IMG/VR virus record: IMGVR_UViG_3300026382_000013
Location: 1-17,330 of that record
Direction: 5' to 3' (one strand)
From: a virus
Lineage: Duplodnaviria > Heunggongvirae > Uroviricota > Caudoviricetes
DNA: 17,330 nucleotides
Shown here piece after piece: positions 5,491 to 14,824 of this stretch. The notes under the pieces were generated by a model. It was not told where the DNA came from, searched no databases, and saw only the letters and a program-made list of their open reading frames with translations. Position 1 is the stretch's first letter. The number at the start of each line of letters is the position of its first letter. The position numbers and the translations under genes were made by a program.

Positions 5491-7356
5491 TTAGAACACA
5501 GTACTCCCACCTCCGCTACCCCATTCATTAGTGTCCTCAGGATAATACCAATTCCCATCATGCCCTTGCTCTACAACATCTAGCTCTGTACTCAACATGT
5601 CTTCTGCACTTGGTTTCTGTAAATCTAGCAAAGGTATCATACTCACTAGGTCAACACCATCATCAGCTTTAGCTGTTAGGCCAGTATACGTGATTCCCCC
5701 AAGCTCTTCTAACAGCTCTTTCATGTCAGGTGTATCAGCTAACTCCTCAGGGAAGTATATATGATGCCCTTGGAATAATGGGTGTACCCTCATGAAGTGG
5801 TTATGCTTATTTCTACCACTTCTGCTAACACCTTCACTACCATATGGTTTACCTACTTGCCTAGCAAATGTAAAATACACATTTCTAGCTTGCATATCTT
5901 TTCTAAGACTCTCTATGTTAAGTTGTTGTTGCCCATTAATCTCAACACCTACCTCAACAAAGTCTACACCATACTTTACAGTGTACATCTGTACAAACCT
6001 AAATATATGCTCAAACTGTTCAGCTATACCATCTTTCTTCAAACTCAACTCTAGTAGGAATATATCCCCTACACTATTCATAGCCCATAGAGCAGTACCA
6101 CTGTAATCCCCTTTCTTACTATTACTAGCAGTATAGTCCGTAGTTGCAAATACTTTATACCCACTAAGGTGCTTTAGTATATTCTGTCTACTATACCACT
6201 GTATCTCACCCTTCTTAATTAACTTATCTTCCTCACTAGCAATCCTAAGCATAAGCTCTTGATTAAACTCTCTTAGTGTTCCACCATATTTAGCATCAAG
6301 ATACCTTTCCATAGCCCAATCATAATCATTCATCTGAGGCCAGCTACCTACAAACTCTTCCTTAGTTGTACCCTCATTAATCTTCTCACACATTGGTACA
6401 CACATTGGGGTCCATACACCATTCTCTAATGCACTATATACAGGATCTTTCTTTGTAAATGGTGTATTGATAATAATCAACTTACCATTTCTATTCATAG
6501 CACTCTCAGCATCACTATATATCATACTATTAAGCTTCTGCATAATAACAGCACTTCTAGCATCAGCTTCACTCTTGATAATATCATCAAAACTCAATAT
6601 ATCAATCCTTTTAGCTCTATAACGAATACCCCTTACACTACTACCACTAGCACCTTTTACTTTAAACATAAAAGCTCTATCTTCTTCTCTGCCATCACCT
6701 CTTCTAATAAACTCACATTCTTCATCAGTAAATCGCATCTTCTCAAAGTAACCCTTACAGAACTCACTGTCCATACACAAGTCCCTAATAGTGTTAGCTT
6801 GTACCTTAGCCCCTGCATGTTGTGCATCACCAAAGCTTACCCAGAACATTACCTTACCGAAGTTAGGTATCTTCCCAGTAATGGCTACGTAGATAGGCAT
6901 AAATGCAGTCAATATAGTACTTTTAGCACTACGTCTACTTGCAATAATAGCTATCTTCTTAGGGTTTATCTTTAAGTTCTTAGTTATCTCTTTAGGAAAT
7001 GGGAACATCTCTTCAGTTACATTACCAAACACTAAATCAACTAAAAAGTAATGCATCTTGCTATTCTTAACTTCAGGTTCTTTCCCTAATACCAACCTAA
7101 TAACATTAAAGAATTCTATAGCTTGTAAACTAGGTATATAATTAGGAAAGCTGAGATCAATAGTGTCCAAAGCCCTATCAACATCAAACTCATACTCTTT
7201 CCTCTTACTTGGCATTTTCACATTCTCAGGTAGTTCCTCTCGCTCTTCAGCTATAGCCTCTAAGAACTTATCCCAACCTTCATACTTACTTTCACTATCA
7301 TCTACTATATCTGGACTATTTTCATCCAGTATAATACTAGCTTCATTCTTAGGCAT
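5491..7356 (-). CDS. terL: Terminase large subunit, N4 gp68-like
   Basis: 621 aa. Walker A-like IAIIASRRSAKST, Walker B ILSFDDI, coupling motif IINTP, and RNase H-like acidic residues (ATTDYTAS, GVEING, ADDGVD). The N-terminal NYIPSLQAIEFFNVIRLV...HYFLVD resembles N4-type terminases. Confidence 0.92.
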   Translation of the reverse strand: MPKNEASIILDENSPDIVDDSESKYEGWDKFLEAIAEEREELPENVKMPSKRKEYEFDVDRALDTIDLSFPNYIPSLQAIEFFNVIRLVLGKEPEVKNSKMHYFLVDLVFGNVTEEMFPFPKEITKNLKINPKKIAIIASRRSAKSTILTAFMPIYVAITGKIPNFGKVMFWVSFGDAQHAGAKVQANTIRDLCMDSEFCKGYFEKMRFTDEECEFIRRGDGREEDRAFMFKVKGASGSSVRGIRYRAKRIDILSFDDIIKSEADARSAVIMQKLNSMIYSDAESAMNRNGKLIIINTPFTKKDPVYSALENGVWTPMCVPMCEKINEGTTKEEFVGSWPQMNDYDWAMERYLDAKYGGTLREFNQELMLRIASEEDKLIKKGEIQWYSRQNILKHLSGYKVFATTDYTASNSKKGDYSGTALWAMNSVGDIFLLELSLKKDGIAEQFEHIFRFVQMYTVKYGVDFVEVGVEINGQQQLNIESLRKDMQARNVYFTFARQVGKPYGSEGVSRSGRNKHNHFMRVHPLFQGHHIYFPEELADTPDMKELLEELGGITYTGLTAKADDGVDLVSMIPLLDLQKPSAEDMLSTELDVVEQGHDGNWYYPEDTNEWGSGGGSTVF

Positions 7357-8107
7357 CTAATGTTACTCCTATCTGTTGTACATCCTCTATACTATGACCT
7401 TGTATAAGTCTTTCCCTTTGTACAGCAGCATTAGCAGCTAACTGTTCAATAAGATTCATTTGTACCTCTTTAGCTTCTTCACTAATACCTATCTTAATAT
7501 CTAGTGTGTTATCCTCAGGCATCTTAACCATATCATACAACTTACTTAAAGCTAGGTGTTGTACATTAGCACTAACCTTTTCACCTCTAGCATCAAAACC
7601 ACATGCTAACTTATACTGTCCTTGTATCGCAAAGTGCCTCATGTGGCTATACTGTAGATGGTCTGCTACAAACATCTGTTTATCTACCTCACCTACTAAC
7701 CAAGTCTTATTATAAGCACCTGCATGGGTGTCTAAACTAGTAGTTGTGCTATTACCAGCAGCTTCTTTAGCCTTAATAGTCTCTTCAACTCTCTTAGCTC
7801 TATCAGGGAATACAATCTTCCAAGCTTTAGTGTTACTCATATACTGTTTCAACGTACAAAACTTAATCGCATTAACATAGTCATCAGACTTCACATTACT
7901 ACCCTTAAGTAACATTATATTACTCATAAACTGCTCTTCCATATACTCTTGAGATACACCAATATCTTCCTCAGCACGTAACATCAATTCCACCATCTCT
8001 TCAGATACCTTATGATGTACACCTCTAGGTAGAAATTCTCTTACCTTCTCAACTGTTATATTTTGAGTGTTATGTGTATGCTTACCAACAAGTTTTAAAT
8101 CTTCCAT
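7349..8107 (-). CDS. N4 gp69-like protein, putative terminase small subunit
   Basis: 252 aa, overlapping the terL start by 8 nt, with an AAGGA SD. ITVEKVREFLP...DDYVNAIKFC...AWKIVFPDR...AYNKTWLV...LDIKIG...NAAVQRERLIQG parallels gp69-family proteins as recalled. Confidence 0.75.
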   Translation of the reverse strand: MEDLKLVGKHTHNTQNITVEKVREFLPRGVHHKVSEEMVELMLRAEEDIGVSQEYMEEQFMSNIMLLKGSNVKSDDYVNAIKFCTLKQYMSNTKAWKIVFPDRAKRVEETIKAKEAAGNSTTTSLDTHAGAYNKTWLVGEVDKQMFVADHLQYSHMRHFAIQGQYKLACGFDARGEKVSANVQHLALSKLYDMVKMPEDNTLDIKIGISEEAKEVQMNLIEQLAANAAVQRERLIQGHSIEDVQQIGVTLDA

Positions 8108-8133: not shown

Positions 8134-8278
8134 CACTTATTACTGTGTAGTGAAGGTTACGTTGGATGGTGCAAAGTACACACTATTATAAATTTTTTTG
8201 TGTAGGGGTAGTATGTAACCTACACGATACACAAAAGTCATAGTCCCCCCTAGTCATTAGCTAGTGTAAATAATAAGT

Positions 8279-8298
8279 ACCTTCTATTTTATATGGTA
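8279..8298 (+). promoter_or_regulatory. Conserved motif copy 1 (candidate phage-RNAP promoter)
   Basis: ACCTTCTATTTTATATGGTA; GG at 8295-8296, 67 nt before the ATG at 8362. Confidence 0.7.
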
Positions 8299-8361
8299 GT
8301 ACTTAGTACTATATACTTGTAAGTCCTGAACCTTTATGGCAGGCATTGTAAGGAGTTAGTT

Positions 8362-8628
8362 ATGGGTTTAAGAATAGTTAAAAAGGTAGACCTTTTAGTA
8401 GACACCACTGGTTATGTTAACCAGTATGGTGTGGCGAGCAATAACATAGGAGTGTACTCACACATTCTTGTGAGTCAAGACCTTGTAGTTCTAAAAAAAC
8501 GATATGTAGCATACTATGAGAAGCGGACTACAGGTAAGTGGCTGACAAGAAATAGTACTTACGACGCAGTGGCACAGCTACAAGAATTAAAAGTGGGAGA
8601 TGTAGTTCCTAAGGAGCTACTAGCCTAA
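8362..8628 (+). CDS. Hypothetical protein (88 aa)
   Basis: AAGGAG SD before the ATG; first gene after motif copy 1. Confidence 0.75.
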   Translation: MGLRIVKKVDLLVDTTGYVNQYGVASNNIGVYSHILVSQDLVVLKKRYVAYYEKRTTGKWLTRNSTYDAVAQLQELKVGDVVPKELLA

Positions 8629-8711
8629 ACATAAGACCTAATCAAGTCTATAAACTGATTGCACTTTAACTATACAAATAGTGCATCGGCTTAACAGAGC
8701 TTATCTGTATT

Positions 8712-8741
8712 CTAACTATGTATAGTAGTTAGTATTTTTTT
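8712..8741 (+). terminator. Putative intrinsic terminator
   Basis: CTAACTA-N7-TAGTTAG stem followed by TA and T7. The stem is AT-rich, so weak. Confidence 0.45.
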
Positions 8742-8764
8742 ACACGGGGAACAAAGCACGAAGT

Positions 8765-8784
8765 ACCTTTTACTTAATGTGGTA
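8765..8784 (+). promoter_or_regulatory. Conserved motif copy 2
   Basis: ACCTTTTACTTAATGTGGTA, preceded by AAGT as in copy 1; GG 35 nt before the ATG at 8816. Confidence 0.65.
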
Positions 8785-8815
8785 ACCTACATATCTTATT
8801 TACAAGGAGTAAGTC

Positions 8816-8941
8816 ATGTCAGTACAATTCATAAGTCCTAATGGACAACAAGTATGTATCAATGTACCAACATCACAAGTTGCAGACAGGCTAGCAGACA
8901 TTATGCTAGCTAACTGTACAGTAATTAAAGTATCAGCATAG
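8816..8941 (+). CDS. Small protein, 41 aa (MSVQFISPNGQQVCINVPTSQVADRLADIMLANCTVIKVSA)
   Basis: Not in the track. AAGGAG SD at 8804-8809; directly downstream of motif copy 2. Confidence 0.7.
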   Translation: MSVQFISPNGQQVCINVPTSQVADRLADIMLANCTVIKVSA

Positions 8942-8992
8942 TCATAAAGCTTGACCATTCAATACCACACCTAGTGTGAAGAAGGAAGTACC

Positions 8993-9301
8993 ATGGTAAG
9001 AACAATAGATAGTAGCATTAAAGCAACAGCAGGTGATGCAGTTCACCAAACTATAGCAATAGCTATGGTGAGAAGAGGTGTGAAAGCCTCAGAAGTTATA
9101 GAAACCCTTAAAGCTTACAATTATATAGTAAACATTAAGGGAGTACTATATAAAGTACAGGCTACTAGTGTGGCTTCAATAGTCACAGGTATAGAAATAG
9201 CTATCTCAGTGCCTAAAGGTAAAGTAGCAGACCTTCATCCAATAGACAATGGTGTAGAAGCACCACAGTCTGCTAACACTCCTCTAGTTATTGAGGAGTA
9301 A
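8993..9301 (+). CDS. Hypothetical protein (102 aa)
   Basis: GAAGGA SD upstream; converges on the ParB-like gene. Confidence 0.75.
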   Translation: MVRTIDSSIKATAGDAVHQTIAIAMVRRGVKASEVIETLKAYNYIVNIKGVLYKVQATSVASIVTGIEIAISVPKGKVADLHPIDNGVEAPQSANTPLVIEE

Positions 9302-9331
9302 CTAGCTTAGCCTTAAACTTAGCCTAATCGT

Positions 9332-10054
9332 TTATTGAGGAGTAGCAGTCTTAATAGCTCCATATAGCATAGAGCTTAACTTCTCAAGCATAGCCAACCC
9401 AAACTCCGACTGTAGCTCTTGTACTTTAGTCTTCAGTGTATTCAACTCATCATCACTAAATAAATTAGTTGCAACACATTGTGACTCACTAAGTATATCA
9501 GCTTCTCTAGATTTAAAATGATTGTAGACACTTAGTAAACTATCTGATAGTAATGGCTTACTAGTAGTACCTATGTTCACTTTACCACCGTTAAACATAT
9601 GGTCCATAATAGCTTTAGAAACTATAGCATCTAGTTTCTTTGCTCTACTTAACATAAGTTTATTAGTTCCATACCTAGCACATACCACTTCTTGAGATTC
9701 TTTAGCACCACTAGCTCTAAGTCTATCATACTCATGTAGAGCATAGATAGCCTTTTGTGTAGGTGTTTGATGTCTTCTAGTCTCATGACTGGCAACAAGC
9801 TGTCTTACTTCTTCTATAGGTGTAGAAGGATTTAAGTGTATAGCTTTTATACTAACACTCTGTAATTCTCTCATAGCTAACACTCTATGTCTACCATCAA
9901 CTACTTTAGCTCTATACAGTTTAATAGGTTCTAGCTGACCATTCTCTGCAATATCAGTTTTTAAAGCCTCAAATTGCTCATCAGTCATCTTAGGAGTACT
10001 AAGAGCTAACTCATGTATTTCAATATCTTTAAGTTTAATTTCAGTTACAACCAT
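9332..10054 (-). CDS. ParB/Sulfiredoxin N-terminal domain protein with probable HTH
   Basis: 240 aa. LKTDIAENGQLEPI...VVDGRHRVLA contains the GxxRxxA CTP-binding motif, then RRHQTPTQKA and a helix-turn-helix-like QEVVCARYGTNKLMLSRAKKL. AGAGG SD. It is the only credible minus-strand gene in the right arm. Confidence 0.85.
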   Translation of the reverse strand: MVVTEIKLKDIEIHELALSTPKMTDEQFEALKTDIAENGQLEPIKLYRAKVVDGRHRVLAMRELQSVSIKAIHLNPSTPIEEVRQLVASHETRRHQTPTQKAIYALHEYDRLRASGAKESQEVVCARYGTNKLMLSRAKKLDAIVSKAIMDHMFNGGKVNIGTTSKPLLSDSLLSVYNHFKSREADILSESQCVATNLFSDDELNTLKTKVQELQSEFGLAMLEKLSSMLYGAIKTATPQ

Positions 10055-10083
10055 TCTTACACCTCTTTAGTTAATGTATTAGT

Positions 10084-10112
10084 ATTATACATCGTTTACT
10101 AACATATGTCAA
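10084..10112 (-). promoter_or_regulatory. Perfect consensus sigma70 promoter of the ParB-like gene
   Basis: The minus strand reads TTGACA-tatgttagtaaacgatg (17 nt)-TATAAT, about 30 nt upstream of the ATG. Confidence 0.85.
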
Positions 10113-10123
10113 GTGGAGGCATT

Positions 10124-10161
10124 TAGTAAACTGTTTACTAAATTTAGTAAACAGTTTACTA
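10124..10161. repeat. 38-bp perfect palindrome built from two 17-bp dyads
   Basis: TAGTAAACTGTTTACTA-AATT-TAGTAAACAGTTTACTA. Checked base by base as self-complementary about 10142/10143. Confidence 0.95.
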
Positions 10162-10189
10162 TTTACTATTTACTATTTACTATTTACTA
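10155..10189 (+). repeat. Tandem heptamer (TTTACTA)x5
   Basis: Five exact copies; the first is the end of the palindrome. Confidence 0.95.
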
Positions 10190-10247
10190 TTTTGTTCTAA
10201 ACTACTATTAGGCGATACTTGTACAAAACTTCTATATACTTACTTAG

Positions 10248-10304
10248 ATAAGGTACACTTTTAGTACCCTTTCACACATCAATAAGGTACACTTTTGGTA
10301 CCCT
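10248..10304. repeat. Two 23-bp direct repeats with internal dyad GGTAC-N7-GTACC (operator-like)
   Basis: ATAAGGTACACTTTTAGTACCCT (10248-10270) and ATAAGGTACACTTTTGGTACCCT (10282-10304): 22/23 identical, 34-bp period. Confidence 0.9.
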
Positions 10305-10393
10305 ATCTTTTTAGTCAAGTTCCCTAATATTGGGCTCTATCGACTGTATTCCCTATTCTAGAATAGAGAGTACACTAATATCCCTTACTAATA

Positions 10394-10413
10394 ACCTCTT
10401 ATTCTATATGGTA
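10394..10413 (+). promoter_or_regulatory. Conserved motif copy 3
   Basis: ACCTCTTATTCTATATGGTA; GG 35 nt before the ATG at 10445; divergent from the ParB-gene promoter. Confidence 0.65.
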
Positions 10414-10444
10414 ATCAATCCAAATCTATTTAAAAGGAACAATC

Positions 10445-10516
10445 ATGTCATGTTTAATTATTGACGGTGTATTATTAACACCAGAAGAAACAGCACAATA
10501 CTTAGCTAACCGTTAA
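10445..10516 (+). CDS. Micropeptide, 23 aa (MSCLIIDGVLLTPEETAQYLANR)
   Basis: Not in the track. AAAGGA SD about 6 nt upstream; first ORF after motif copy 3. Confidence 0.5.
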   Translation: MSCLIIDGVLLTPEETAQYLANR

Positions 10517-10601
10517 GTATATGTAATCAGTCGTTAACATACTATAGTAGTAACAGTCTACTATTTAATACCTCAACTAATAATGAGAAGAAAGGGTCAG
10601 C

Positions 10602-10949
10602 ATGGCATCAATAATCAAAGACATAAAACAAGCAACAGCAAGCACATTGAGTGCGGGTGTTGCAGTAGTAACGAGCACAGCGGATATGATCACAACTGTA
10701 GCAGGAAGCACTACTGCAATTGTAGACCCAACTATTGGGATGGTCACAGATGTAGCTAGTGTTGGGAGATCTTACACTAGCACACTACTACTTGAGACTC
10801 AGGCAGACAGTAAGATATCTAATGCAATAGCACAGAGTAAACTAGAAGCATCTAAGACTTACTTAGAGTCTAAAGCAGGTAAAAGTAAACTAGCAGAGGC
10901 TAGTGAGAAGTATGTCCAAATGCAATTGGACGAGATGTTAGATTTCTAG
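10602..10949 (+). CDS. Hypothetical Thr/Ala/Ser-rich helical protein (115 aa)
   Basis: AAAGGG SD; open frame with phage-like codon usage. Confidence 0.75.
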   Translation: MASIIKDIKQATASTLSAGVAVVTSTADMITTVAGSTTAIVDPTIGMVTDVASVGRSYTSTLLLETQADSKISNAIAQSKLEASKTYLESKAGKSKLAEASEKYVQMQLDEMLDF

Positions 10950-11145
10950 CATCTCAAGTTGTTAGTAAGAGTGGGTAACTGCTCTGCTAACACTAAACTC
11001 TATTACACGATTAACAAAGAAAGCTAGAAGGCCTGCAACAAAGAATGTAGCATACTAGCTAATTCAGCTTGTACTATATTAGCTTCTTTACTAATAGTAT
11101 TAAAGTACTTATTTACTAAAGCTTGTTCATCTAGACTTAGTTCCA

Positions 11146-11166
11146 CTCTAGGCTCTAGGCTCTAGG
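11146..11166 (+). repeat. Tandem heptamer (CTCTAGG)x3
   Basis: Three exact copies inside the 750-bp non-coding gap. Confidence 0.85.
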
Positions 11167-11253
11167 TATTTTGACATCTAATACAGTATTCTCTGCTAGC
11201 CATCTTAGGATCGTTCCTAGACTATCAGTATAAAATAGATACTTTAGTACTAC

Positions 11254-11366
11254 TAAATTCTGGTCAATAATTAATAGTTACCGACCAGAGAAAAGATGGT
11301 CGGTCGACCAGAATTTAAAACTGATACCCTAATTTAGGGGTTTGCTAAAAAAGATGGTCGACCGAC
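11254..11366. repeat. Cluster of nested inverted and direct repeats built on GGTCG/CGACC
   Basis: TAAATTCTGGTC (11254-65) and GACCAGAATTTA (11306-17) are inverted. ACCGACCA-N9-TGGTCGGT spans 11280-11304. AAAAGATGGTCG is a direct repeat at 11291 and 11349. GGTCGACC occurs at 11302 and 11356. Confidence 0.85.
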
Positions 11367-11638
11367 TTACTTACTACAATAACTCTTTATATCCTATATA
11401 CTAATAGACAAACTGTGGATTTAATTAAACCTATCTCATGTTTTTCAAGACGATTTAGACAGGACTCCAGTCCTATTAAAATTAATTACAAGCGACAGCA
11501 CTGAAAAATAAAACACTTATTTAATTAATATAGAGTTCTCGATAGGTTATCTACCTTAATTAAATCTTAACTTAAATTTACATAACCCACTTATAACCCC
11601 AAACACTCATCCTACACTGTATTTATGGAAGCCTAACA

Positions 11639-11658
11639 ACCTTCTATTTAATATGGTA
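11639..11658 (+). promoter_or_regulatory. Conserved motif copy 4 (consensus-like)
   Basis: gcctaacaACCTTCTATTTAATATGGTA; GG 47 nt before the ATG at 11702. Confidence 0.7.
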
Positions 11659-11701
11659 TTACAACAACACTCAACACTAACTTATTTATAAAGGGAATAT
11701 A

Positions 11702-12154
11702 ATGCCTACAATAACAAAAATAGATGGCCTAGTACAAGACTCAAACACAATAGAAATTACTCTATCAGACGGTAAAGTAATTAAACAGTACCATAGGCAA
11801 GATTGCTGTGAATATGTAGCAGTACATCAAGTAGATGGTAATATCTCTAAACATATAGGAGCAAAGTACATAGAGTTACTTTGTAAATCTAGAAGAGCAC
11901 AAAACGATGAAGTGTCTGCAAGTGGTACATGGACATTCTACACATTAAAGACATCTAAAGGTTATTTAGACTGGAGATGGTTAGGTGAGTCTAATGGGTA
12001 CTATAGTGAAAATGTAACAACAGTAACTTTATACCCATTAGAACTAGCAAGAGATAACTCTATAGAATTAGTAGACATTACAGCATACAATTTTGATAAA
12101 GAAGACTACACATCTAAATCTCTATTCAAATGGAAACTATTAGGAAATATTTAG
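11702..12154 (+). CDS. Conserved phage hypothetical protein (HxQDCC...TWTFY...RWxGESNGYYSE family)
   Basis: 150 aa with YHRQDCCEYV, WTFYTLKTSKGYLDWRWLGESNGYYSENV, a motif set recalled from a widespread phage DUF (possibly DUF7448; unverified). Confidence 0.75.
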   Translation: MPTITKIDGLVQDSNTIEITLSDGKVIKQYHRQDCCEYVAVHQVDGNISKHIGAKYIELLCKSRRAQNDEVSASGTWTFYTLKTSKGYLDWRWLGESNGYYSENVTTVTLYPLELARDNSIELVDITAYNFDKEDYTSKSLFKWKLLGNI

Positions 12155-12230
12155 CAGGGACCATAAAGGTGATTTACTTACAGCTACTACTGAATCATTA
12201 TTTAAAAATAAACTACTTTAAAGCCTAATA

Positions 12231-12249
12231 ACCTTTTATTTAAATGGCA
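12231..12249 (+). promoter_or_regulatory. Conserved motif copy 5 (1-nt shorter spacer)
   Basis: gcctaataACCTTTTATTTAAATGGCA; GG 65 nt before the ATG at 12311. Confidence 0.6.
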
Positions 12250-12310
12250 GTGTGTACAACTGAAATTCGTTGTATATTTATACCTTACTAAAACATATGG
12301 AGATTTAAAA

Positions 12311-12955
12311 ATGGAAAATACAATCACAGCACAAGAAGCATTTAATGAAAAGCTTGAGGAAATTCGTAAAGAAAGAGCAATGGATCTTACAGCGAATAGA
12401 TTAAGATCTGAAGTAGCCATAAACGATGCACTACTTAGAGAATCAGTAGCAACTGTTACTGTAGTTCTTAAAGAGCTATACGAGTTCTTAGACTTAGAAC
12501 CAGAGAAGCTAGAGTCTTTCTTAAAGATGGCGAGAAGAAGTGAGTACGGTAGAGTACCAGAAATGTTAGCTAAGATAGCATCATTGTATACATGGCCAGG
12601 ATGTGATGTGCAAGACATTGCAGATACTCAAGAAGATATCTTAGACATCATCAATAAGTATACAGCAGTTCCAGTGACAGCAGACCTTCTTATGGATATT
12701 AAAGAGTCTAAAGGTTCTCATACATTCTTAAGTAATACAGATTACGAAGTTATAGATGCTATCGAACCTGCTTATGAAGAGTTTAAGTACTACATCTCTA
12801 CATTAGCTGATTACCTCAATCTTCCATATGTAGACATTAAACTATCTGAAGAGAAGTGGGAAAAGAACGAACACAAAGCTCTCAAAAGAGTAGCTAAAGA
12901 GCAAGAAGAAGCACAAAAAGCTTTAGAAGCTCATAATGCATTAGTTAGTGCATAG
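12311..12955 (+). CDS. Acidic helical hypothetical protein (214 aa) directly upstream of the RNAP
   Basis: GGAG SD; Glu-rich with a coiled-coil-like C-terminus; no family recognised. Confidence 0.8.
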   Translation: MENTITAQEAFNEKLEEIRKERAMDLTANRLRSEVAINDALLRESVATVTVVLKELYEFLDLEPEKLESFLKMARRSEYGRVPEMLAKIASLYTWPGCDVQDIADTQEDILDIINKYTAVPVTADLLMDIKESKGSHTFLSNTDYEVIDAIEPAYEEFKYYISTLADYLNLPYVDIKLSEEKWEKNEHKALKRVAKEQEEAQKALEAHNALVSA

Positions 12956-12958
12956 TAA

Positions 12959-12977
12959 GTAGGGATTTAGTCCCTAC
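12959..12977. promoter_or_regulatory. Hairpin GTAGGGA-TTTAG-TCCCTAC upstream of the RNAP gene
   Basis: Perfect 7-bp stem in a 48-nt intergenic gap; no U-tract follows, so function is unclear. Confidence 0.5.
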
Positions 12978-13003
12978 AACCAATTTATTTATAAGGACAA
13001 AGT

Positions 13004-14782
13004 ATGTTATATAGTTTACTAAACAAAGAGTTACCAGACAATACCAAAGTCTATATATCTTTTGAGTCAGTGGCAACAAAGCTACTAATAGACTCTATGG
13101 AGTATAGTTTCATTAATGGTTCTAACCAAGTATCAGTACCATTTTGGAGTGAAAAGATAGGTGCAAAGTTATTCACAGCTGTATCTTTTGCATTAGGTGA
13201 AGAAAAATGGATTAATGGTGTAGTTAAACCAAACTTCGCATACATAGAACTTAATGAGACTAAACTTGCTAAGTATATTGATACTACAAAGTATCGTAAA
13301 GATATGAGAATTAAGCTCAATACTATGAAATGTGTTAATAGTATTATGGATAGTAACCTCACTAAAACACCTAATAGCATCGAAGATACAGGATTAGTAA
13401 GAGATGGTTTTGCTAAGTGTGCTAGTATGAAGTTTCAATTAGATACAGTAGCTATGCTTAAGCACTATGAGTTAATTAAGTCTAACTTAGTTAAAGGTAT
13501 GACTAATGTTGCTAAGAAATACCCAGATGTCCTTATGGATGAAGCTAACTATAAAGCAATTTCAGAAGAAGTATTAGATTACTATCTATGTAACCCTAAA
13601 AAGTACTATAACCTTGAATCAAACATAAATGATATGAGAGGTAGAAGCATCTATAGTGGTATCCGTAAAGTAGGCAATATTATTGCTAACAAAGACATGA
13701 GAGCACTTATTATAGCTGATAAATCAGTATTTATACTAGATACTAATAAGAAAGCTTTAAATGATATCTACCTGTTCATTGCAGAATTAGTAGAAAGTAA
13801 AGCTAAGTCATGGAATGGTAAGATACTTAGTGGTATGGTATCTTATAAAAAGAAAAGATTACCTAATATGACAGCTAAAACACTACATGAGATTATATGG
13901 TTAGAAAGAATCTACGAAGCTTTAGACCAACTATTTATAGATGGTAGTATTATGTGGAACATACCTTTAGAAATGGATGCTACAGCTTCTATAGCTCAGA
14001 TTGTTGGAGTACTTACTAATGATCGTAGATTACTAGCTAAAACTAATGTAATAGAACCAGAAACTCTTGAAGACTTTTGGTATGTAAAAGGTGTAAACAA
14101 CCGTGATGGTATAAAAGCAATAGGTACACCAGTAGGTTATGGTTCTAGTGCTTCATTCACTAAACTTCTTAAAGCTAAAAAGGAAACTCTTACAAAAGAA
14201 GAGATGAAAGCTATACGAAAAGAATTTAAAGATGGTGCATTTGCAGTTATTAAAGCATTCAAAGATTTAACAGTTAAACATGCTAATATTACTACACCAA
14301 CATTTACTACAGATACTTACTTTGAGCAGTATACGACTACTGTTAATAAGCATAAAGTAGTAGGTGCTAACCTTACAGCATATAGTACATATTGTAGCAA
14401 GACTAAGACTATTAAAATTATTATGAACCATACTACTATTACAGTACCTGATTATGATAGATTTAGAACTTACCATGCTACAGGTCTTATACATAATTTA
14501 GATTCGTTTATCATGGATAGTACTATGAAAACTATCCAAGATAGAGGAGAATGGTGTATAGCTATTCATGATGCAGGGTTAGTACTTCCAGGTACTGCTA
14601 TGAGAGAAGCTTACATAGCTCAATTAGAGAACTTAAGAACTAATAGACATAAAGTACTTAATAGTTACTTACAGTCTATAGGAGCAACAGATAAAGCTTC
14701 TAAAATAGCTTATACTAAATTATTAGCTACTGTAGAACCACTTGATAATTCTATTTCATTCTCTATTTCAGCACTTAAATAA
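13004..14782 (+). CDS. Compact single-chain T7/N4-RNAPII-family DNA-directed RNA polymerase
   Basis: 592 aa. DX2GR motif DMRGRSIY (D210; T7 DWRGRVY). Motif A LEMDATASIAQ (D325; T7 D537). Motif B RDGIKAIGTPVGYG with exact R-x3-K-x7-YG spacing (R367/K371/Y379). GLIHNLD (H497; T7 NFVHSQD). Motif C AIHDAG (D523; T7 LIHDSF). AAGGA SD. Confidence 0.9.
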   Translation: MLYSLLNKELPDNTKVYISFESVATKLLIDSMEYSFINGSNQVSVPFWSEKIGAKLFTAVSFALGEEKWINGVVKPNFAYIELNETKLAKYIDTTKYRKDMRIKLNTMKCVNSIMDSNLTKTPNSIEDTGLVRDGFAKCASMKFQLDTVAMLKHYELIKSNLVKGMTNVAKKYPDVLMDEANYKAISEEVLDYYLCNPKKYYNLESNINDMRGRSIYSGIRKVGNIIANKDMRALIIADKSVFILDTNKKALNDIYLFIAELVESKAKSWNGKILSGMVSYKKKRLPNMTAKTLHEIIWLERIYEALDQLFIDGSIMWNIPLEMDATASIAQIVGVLTNDRRLLAKTNVIEPETLEDFWYVKGVNNRDGIKAIGTPVGYGSSASFTKLLKAKKETLTKEEMKAIRKEFKDGAFAVIKAFKDLTVKHANITTPTFTTDTYFEQYTTTVNKHKVVGANLTAYSTYCSKTKTIKIIMNHTTITVPDYDRFRTYHATGLIHNLDSFIMDSTMKTIQDRGEWCIAIHDAGLVLPGTAMREAYIAQLENLRTNRHKVLNSYLQSIGATDKASKIAYTKLLATVEPLDNSISFSISALK

Positions 14783-14824
14783 AGATGAGGCCTTTTGGTC
14801 TTGTCTTTACTTATTTTTTTTTTT
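14780..14824 (+). terminator. Intrinsic terminator after the RNAP gene
   Basis: TAAAGATGAGGCC-TTTT-GGTCTTGTCTTTA forms a 13-bp stem including three G-U pairs, followed by CTTA and T11. Confidence 0.7.

Follow-up and report, generated by a model that had tools for sequence, protein, structure and literature searches.

A clustered intergenic motif in an AD45-like N4-type phage as a candidate early promoter of the virion RNA polymerase

Five copies of an intergenic motif in the early region

The window analysed here comprises the initial 17,330 nt of an 81,330-nt IMG/VR virus record (IMGVR_UViG_3300026382_000013) which, judged from its sequence, belongs to an AD45-like N4-type phage of approximately 100 kb from a vent. 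The record contains one rightward block of genes (8.2-50.8 kb) with leftward late genes on both sides. Since both record ends lie in late genes, the block of early and middle genes is complete. The subject of this work is an intergenic motif with a conserved GG, all five copies of which are located in 4 kb of this block, between the predicted left end of the packaged chromosome (approximately 8200) and the operon of an RNAPII-like RNA polymerase (RNAP).

A previous sequence-only reading had reported the copies at 8279, 8765, 10394, 11639 and 12231, all on the + strand and intergenic, and this was borne out by our scans and by inspection of the letters. The 20-mer quoted there is found at 8279 with one mismatch, at 8765 with three and at 11639 with none; zero matches are expected according to 200 dinucleotide shuffles. 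The copy at 10394 differs from the 20-mer by four substitutions in ungapped comparison, and in the copy at 12231 one nucleotide is deleted and the end is GGCA. In total, there are five intergenic copies on the + strand, four of them ungapped and one with a 1-nt deletion. A 29-nt family with four copies was recovered independently in a repeat search, which linked copies 3 and 5.

A position weight matrix (PWM) was built from the four ungapped copies and the whole record was scanned with it. The four copies score 35.5-38.3 bits, the next best site reaches 15 bits, and no copy is present on the minus strand. With a spacing-tolerant core pattern, exactly the five + strand sites were found. Both scans returned zero copies in the 36-kb middle block (14.8-50.8 kb), which contains genes for replication and nucleotide metabolism, and the motif is absent from the entire 14.8-81.3 kb of the record, so that all five copies are upstream of the polymerase operon or placed to drive it. 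Thus, the earlier observation that genes and the minus strand are free of copies holds across the 81-kb record, and the whole-genome motif scan proposed at that time revealed a cluster confined to 4 kb.

The conserved blocks follow each other in the order upstream subclass box, ACCT, YYTAYTYW, ATRT and GGTA, and cover the positions between about -22 or -16 and +4, with ACCT at -16 to -13, TA at -10/-9, AT at -4/-3 and GG at +1/+2. Both subclasses of the upstream box that were described before are real, with AAGT-ACC in copies 1 and 2 and CTAAYA-ACC in copies 3 to 5. The 3' box occurs in the variants ATATGG, ATGTGG and AAATGG, and the box WTRTGG was found in 7 of 7 distinct copies. Measured from the first G of the GG to the ATG led by a Shine-Dalgarno (SD) sequence, the distances are 67, 35, 35, 47 and 65 nt for copies 1 to 5, in agreement with the range of 35-67 nt given before. 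A "weaker copy", which had been suggested at 12282-12300, was not counted, because an insertion and approximately five base changes would be necessary to make it fit, its GG belongs to the SD sequence of the ATG at 12311, and it is not kept in the related contig L015.

When metagenome contigs were scanned with the degenerate form of the motif, 81 loci were obtained, which is approximately the number estimated by chance, and according to blastn only two of them, L032 and L065, are true relatives. The same kind of scan in IMG/VR gave three single matches in unrelated contigs, which we take as chance. No near-identical match to the window was found among GenBank phages, and no relative locus was found in IMG/VR with the RNAPII-like polymerase (592 aa) as query. 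In L032, which is approximately 90-93% identical to the window, the ortholog of copy 4 is kept in 20 of 20 positions and belongs to a stretch of 43 identical nt, whereas nine substitutions are found in the 60 nt upstream of it (approximately 85% identity). In the more distant L065 (approximately 73-86% identical), the ortholog of copy 3 is kept in 17 of 20 positions and the three differences are transitions at positions 9, 11 and 15, which are also degenerate among the paralogs; its flanks contain a 9-nt and a 4-nt indel. The preservation of the orthologs next to diverged flanks points to purifying selection. The motif is real, non-random and under selection.

Two phage polymerases and the reading of the motif

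Profiles of PHROG identify the gene for the terminase large subunit (TerL; 5491-7356, minus strand), an N4 gp69-like gene (7349-8107, minus strand), and also genes for a portal protein, a primase and a ribonucleotide reductase; N4-like among these are TerL, the portal and the primase. In addition, the profile of the virion RNAP (vRNAP; phrog_2206) matches two open reading frames (ORFs), one of 2393 aa (E 2e-91) and one of 1442 aa (E 5e-107), which correspond to the polymerase-domain part and to the C-terminal part, respectively. The polymerase domain comprises approximately residues 1380-2393 of the larger ORF (record 56282-63463, minus strand). Together with an ORF of 360 aa between them, they form three tightly packed ORFs in differing frames (record 50869-63463). 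An in-frame stop between the vRNAP ORFs was ruled out, the junction being TAG-GT-ATG with the next ORF in a different frame. In tblastn, the polymerase-domain part matched 165 schitovirus vRNAPs of Vibrio, Pseudomonas and Escherichia phages at approximately 23% identity, and in a MAFFT alignment the catalytic aspartates of its motifs A and C correspond to D559 and D951 of N4. A phmmer comparison of the polymerase domain with PDB gave no match. Among isolates, the Alteromonas phages of the AD45 group are nearest to this phage, and their vRNAP is split in two as well (PMC3821669).

The 592-aa polymerase belongs to a family of 570-630-aa metagenome proteins, the profile of which matches chain B of PDB 6DT7, the N4 RNAP2 (gp16), with E 5e-5 across motifs A and C. 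Based on this match, we consider the enzyme the unsplit counterpart of N4 RNAPII. Its only relatives in isolated phages are found in Alteromonas phages AD45-P1 to P4 (100-104 kb), in which the RNAPII gene is in three pieces; in the 2013 description of these isolates, no RNAPII gene could be found. The 214-aa ORF preceding the polymerase gene in the window has no family match, and counterparts of 211-215 aa are present in the relatives L015, L016, L017/L018 and L022. It is a candidate polymerase cofactor, since its position is comparable to that of N4 gp2 or LUZ7 Drc.

It seems moderately probable to us that the five copies are early promoters which are read by the injected vRNAP and from which transcription starts at the GG. 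According to this model, the polymerase packaged in the virion would enter the cell together with the DNA and recognise the five copies, and the first G of the GG would be the first transcribed nucleotide. Five rightward units would be driven by the motif, beginning with one shortly after the packaged left end and finishing with the operon of the 592-aa polymerase; this enzyme would subsequently transcribe the middle genes. The extent of the motif block corresponds to the binding region (-17 to -5) and the initiation region (-4 to +6) of T7-family and N4 vRNAP promoters. The unit structure speaks for this model, with a terminator-like hairpin 5' of copy 2 and a strong one after the polymerase gene. 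The unit behind copy 3 needs a promoter of its own, because the upstream gene is on the opposite strand. The first G as +1 is also consistent with the template contacts of N4 vRNAP, which are -8G, -10G, -11G and +1C (PMC4496689).

The sequence-only reading had assigned the motif to the compact polymerase as a promoter with a start at the GG. A promoter of a phage single-subunit RNAP with this start is still the best reading, but the compact enzyme is probably not its reader, in view of the distribution of the copies and the presence of the vRNAP. A T7-style promoter of the 592-aa polymerase would fit to a contiguous 20-nt block which, like T7, T3 and SP6 promoters, ends AT-rich with GG, and to the absence of a hairpin. 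Moreover, RNAPII-type enzymes are nearer to T7 RNAP than the vRNAP is (PMC4496689), and the enzyme is unsplit here. Nevertheless, we regard this as unlikely, since the 36-kb block downstream of the polymerase gene has zero copies and all copies are upstream, one of them in front of the operon of the enzyme itself. In the characterised RNAPII of N4, the N-terminal domain for promoter recognition is truncated; the enzyme requires ssDNA-binding cofactors and uses only a short AT-rich promoter from -7 to +2 with initiation at T, which is spread over the left half of the genome; the RNAPII promoters of LUZ7 are GC-rich hairpins (PMC4496689; PMC9163698). The N4 RNAPII middle-promoter class was rejected for the motif, which has at least 20 nt with GG at its end and occurs within 4 kb only. 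Altogether, three arguments favour the vRNAP over the 592-aa enzyme: no polymerase can be responsible for the initial transcription of its own gene, so that another one would still be required; the motif is missing from the genes which an RNAPII-type enzyme should express; and this type of enzyme has a truncated recognition domain and another promoter form in N4 and LUZ7.

Several points weigh against the vRNAP as the reader. We infer the promoter role, the polymerase and the +1 position alike, and that the latter two are inferences counts on this side. The linear, T7-like motif would suit the more T7-like RNAPII enzyme better. Approximately 22% of the genome, which is late-gene territory, is located outside the record. 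In L015, the closest relative with a long contig (56% RNAPII identity), there is no clean equivalent of the motif, and only loosely similar sites are found near 2040 and 3690. Further, the characterised vRNAP promoters are structurally defined by a hairpin with a stem of 5-7 bp and a 3-nt loop, which is centred at -11 in N4 (GC-rich, on the template strand, with a purine-centred loop) and 13-14 nt upstream of the start in LUZ7, and this hairpin is missing here at the N4 register: a candidate spanning -17 to -5 was rejected, as only 2 of 5 positions can pair. When 50-nt windows of all five copies were folded as DNA on both strands, energies of -1.3 to -3.6 kcal/mol were obtained (0, i.e. no fold, for the + strand of copy 4), with z from -1.4 to +1.0 and no shared structure.

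Instead of a promoter, the motif could be an operator for a regulator such as the ParB-like protein, or a leader signal at the level of RNA (processing or translation). An ACC-N13-GGT mini-dyad in four copies, on which the sequence-only reading had based its operator alternative, the fixed kind of position 5' of genes, and the recombination between copies are compatible with this. However, the symmetric arms have only 3 nt, the 14-nt core is asymmetric, and each copy is co-oriented with its gene. Moreover, L065 has two copies of the motif and no ParB-like gene by tblastn (E up to 10), which argues against an operator of this protein; better candidates for it are located beside the ParB-like gene, namely a 38-bp perfect palindrome and TTTACTA repeats (10124-10196). 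An RNA signal is at odds with copies 1 and 3, which have no co-directional upstream transcription, one being preceded by the chromosome end and the other by a minus-strand gene. We therefore consider both variants quite unlikely. The slot of the ParB-like gene between early units is a swap site, which in L065 is occupied by an unrelated 162-aa ORF (1461-1949) without PHROG match.

Very unlikely are promoters of host RNAP (sigma-70 or alternative sigma) for immediate-early genes: the early genes of most phages are transcribed by host RNAP, and TA (positions 7-8) and TGGTA (positions 16-20) could represent the beginning of a -10 or extended -10 element, but there is no -35/-10 pair with a spacing of 16-18 nt in a common register among the copies, for both candidate hexamers the -7 T occurs in a minority of copies only, conservation is strongest where the sigma-70 spacer would fall, sigma-70-like matches in the region number 26 versus 28.8 in shuffles, a perfect TTGACA-17-TATAAT is available nearby on the other strand, and the phage carries a vRNAP.

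Genome end, promoter form and comparison with known systems

At the left end of the rightward block, the order of elements is a T-run with GTGTAGGGGTAG (8196-8216), CCCCCC (8245-8250), TAGTGTA (approximately 8262) and then copy 1. N4 starts with TGGTGGGGCTAC, followed by a C9 tract (32-40), TAGTGTA and then the P1 hairpin (90-102) with TTATGG; its P2 is located at 559 and its P3 at 4548, directly 5' of gp15/gp16, both with TTTTGG. At the switch between late and early strand, the T-run, a GTAGGGG box and a C6-8 tract are present in 7 of 7 relatives (L015, L017 and L019-L023), and the T-run with the GTAGGGG box is also found at N4 position 1. The end motifs common to N4 (nt 1-60) and the 100-kb relatives are the T-run with GT(N)AGGGG, a C6-9 tract 27-45 nt later, and TAGTGTA. 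The length of the C tract is strain-variable, with insertions of C or CC at 8244 in the variants X2 and X3, which are DNA contigs from hydrothermal-vent metagenomes. Based on the N4-like end motifs at the strand switch, the packaged chromosome probably starts near 8200.

The five copies resemble N4 P1-P3 in that several co-oriented copies are located in the first few kb after a packaged left end with homologous end motifs, and copy 5 is placed in front of the RNAPII-like operon like P3 in front of gp15/16. The footprint is also alike, from approximately -17 to +2 with a T/A-rich spacer and GG (TTTTGG or TTATGG in N4, with +1 at the first G), and this phage encodes a gp50-type virion polymerase. 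In contrast to N4, where a GC-rich 5-bp stem with a 3-nt loop (GNNGC-TYC-GCNNC) at -11 is extruded by supercoiling, the motif consists of linear AT-rich blocks (ACCT, TA, AT). There are five copies instead of three, and the vRNAP is split into ORFs. The early promoters of LUZ7, a relative of N4, were mapped by ONT-cappable-seq (PMC9163698). They likewise start at G and number more than three, some of them in tandem, but their stem has at least 4 bp and a conserved 3-nt loop, whereas here only an A/T stem with a 4-5-nt loop can be drawn. With T7, T3 and SP6 promoters, the motif shares a contiguous block of approximately 20 nt with an AT-rich melt region before the initiating G and without -35/-10 elements. 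However, it has no sequence similarity to any T7-group consensus, and T7-type promoters precede middle and late genes and not the polymerase gene, which is the reverse of the distribution found here.

This weak A/T stem would be formed by AAGTA or AATAA, which ends at the A of ACC (-20 to -16), and TACTT or TTATT (TWYTT), with the loop CCTY(Y). Its centre, approximately 13.5 nt 5' of the first G, has the spacing seen in LUZ7 (13-14 nt). Four of 7 distinct copies have a perfect stem and copy 1 has one with a G-T pair, but the stem is broken (3 of 5 pairs) in both AACAA-type copies, copy 4 and the L065 ortholog of copy 3; in the latter, both stem differences to the window are disruptive and not compensatory. 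For these reasons the promoter is treated as essentially linear. When perfect stems with 5 bp or more and loops of 3-4 nt were sought in the early region, no recurrent hairpin family emerged. On balance, the evidence tips slightly against a functional hairpin.

As no stable GC-rich hairpin is present, recognition is probably of largely linear sequence. At the level of the polymerase, the N4 promoter-contact residues W129, K114, R119, K267/268, D901 and R904 (numbering verified on N4) are in our alignment not conserved even in LUZ7 and JA-1, and at the W129 position this phage and LUZ7 have an aromatic Y. Tentatively, we propose that the vRNAP of the AD45-like lineage recognises a linear, T7-style promoter of approximately 20 nt and not a hairpin extruded by supercoiling.

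Motifs of a comparable kind exist in two more distant relatives (approximately 41-42% RNAPII identity), but they differ from the window motif. L017 has its own motif GCTTCAATTGTNTTTAG in four + strand copies versus 0 expected, and L022 has CCAACYAGCCTMGTRATRG in three + strand copies versus 0.05 expected. These motifs comprise 17-19 nt, and their + strand copies are all located between the strand switch and the RNAPII gene, with none in the 8-10 kb beyond. In L015, L019, L020, L021 and AD45-P1, no intergenic motif that recurs convincingly emerged from de novo search.

The kind of element is known; new are the apparent lack of the canonical hairpin and the lineage-specific motif. Transcription signals were not previously described for AD45-like marine or vent N4-type phages, and the present analysis assigns to the injected polymerase a testable promoter set, along with a predicted chromosome start and early transcription units. 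At the same time, the choice of the phage polymerase with which to test the motif is corrected from the 592-aa enzyme to the vRNAP. If the hairpin-free promoter is true, hairpin recognition is not universal in the vRNAP family, promoter specificity turns over fast between relatives, as the different motifs in L017 and L022 would indicate, and the picture of how a vRNAP finds start sites on freshly injected DNA would change. The short promoter and its polymerase could then also be of use as an orthogonal expression system.

Module boundaries and other elements of the early region

The features of the region are summarized in Table 1. The hairpin at 8712-8741 was read from the sequence; it was missed by a GC-based scan. 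The hairpin at 14780-14809 is likely the end of the early region.

Table 1. Coordinates of the motif copies and of accompanying features in the window
Feature	Position	Strand	Remarks
T-run then GTGTAGGGGTAG	8196-8216	+	Predicted start of packaged chromosome; homologous to the first bases of N4 (TGGTGGGGCTAC)
C6 tract then ..TAGTGTA	8245-8250	+	Counterpart of the N4 C9 tract (nt 32-40); strain-variable length
Motif copy 1	8273-8302; core 8279-8298; GG 8295-8296	+	67 nt before ATG 8362; P1-equivalent, first promoter candidate after the predicted left end
AT-rich terminator-like hairpin with T7 run	8712-8741	+	7-bp stem CTAACTA/TAGTTAG, 7-nt loop; ends the first unit, just 5' of copy 2
Motif copy 2	8759-8788; core 8765-8784; GG 8781-8782	+	35 nt before ATG 8816
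Perfect sigma-70 consensus TTGACA-17-TATAAT	10084-10112	-	Putative promoter of the ParB-like gene; contrast showing the look of a host promoter
Motif copy 3	10388-10417; core 10394-10413; GG 10410-10411	+	35 nt before 23-codon ORF 10445-10516, then ORF 10602-10949
Motif copy 4	11633-11662; core 11639-11658; GG 11655-11656	+	Exact consensus; 47 nt before DUF7448 ORF 11702-12154
Motif copy 5	12225-12249; core 12231-12249; GG 12246-12247	+	One base deleted, GGCA; 65 nt before the operon of 214-aa ORF and RNAPII-like polymerase; P3-equivalent
Leader element of RNAPII operon, GTGTGTACAACTGARATTCGTTGTAT	12250-12275	+	26 nt; 6-bp stem TACAAC/GTTGTA
Early operon behind copy 5	12311-14782	+	214-aa ORF (12311-12955), then 592-aa unsplit RNAPII-like polymerase (13004-14782)
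Strong intrinsic-terminator-like hairpin	14780-14809	+	13 pairs and T-run; directly 3' of the polymerase gene

The motif copies also recombine with each other. The first promoter candidate of L065 (reverse strand 1-200) is chimeric: its upstream flank and 5' half correspond to copy 1, its 3' half and leader to copy 2, and the ORF at 8362-8628 was deleted by the crossover inside the motif. The same joint, from 8293 to 8780, is present in variant X3. Thus, the copies bound a dispensable cassette (ORF 8362-8628), and crossover in natural variants means that they also act as module boundaries in genome evolution. The PeSL cassettes of T4-type phages (Arbiol et al. 2010) are reportedly similar, in that small dispensable genes are flanked by repeated early promoters, at which recombination takes place. 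The removal of the ORF in X3 and L065 by a crossover in the motif parallels them, while polymerase and motif are different and no stem-loop is associated.

The leader element GTGTGTACAACTGARATTCGTTGTAT behind copy 5 has only one A/G difference in L015 (5548-5573), although the proteins are only approximately 56% identical, and L015 has no motif at the copy 5 site. Possibly, expression of the polymerase is controlled by this element at the RNA or DNA level. Another leader, the AT-rich TTATTTAWAAGGA, recurs right before start codons at 8794, 10424, 11680, 12983 and 14851, and at 20552 of the record. It is found at early and some middle genes, where it could provide a context for translation initiation or, possibly, an AT-rich and short start region of the RNAPII type.

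At 10084-10196, the sigma-70 promoter of the minus strand is overlapped by the 38-bp perfect palindrome (10124-10161), followed by the tandem TTTACTA repeats. This looks like an autoregulated promoter of host RNAP with its operator. The only Rfam matches, to mir-451 on the palindrome, were sub-threshold and are taken as chance. Just 5' of copy 3, two 26-nt direct repeats (ATAAGGTACACTTTTRGTACCC) and a palindrome (TCCCTATTCTAGAATAGAGA) are located at 10248-10307 and 10345-10374. They are kept in L065 despite the missing ParB-like gene, and one of the ATAAGGTACACTTTTRGTACCC repeats is lost in variants X2 and X3 (joint 10247 to 10282). Finally, a 700-nt non-coding stretch before copy 4 (10950-11640) contains two AAAAGATGGTCGRYCGAC repeats, CTCTAGG runs and AT-rich inverted repeats. 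It is a possible origin or regulatory region, and in variant X3 it carries a 149-nt deletion from 11425 to 11575.

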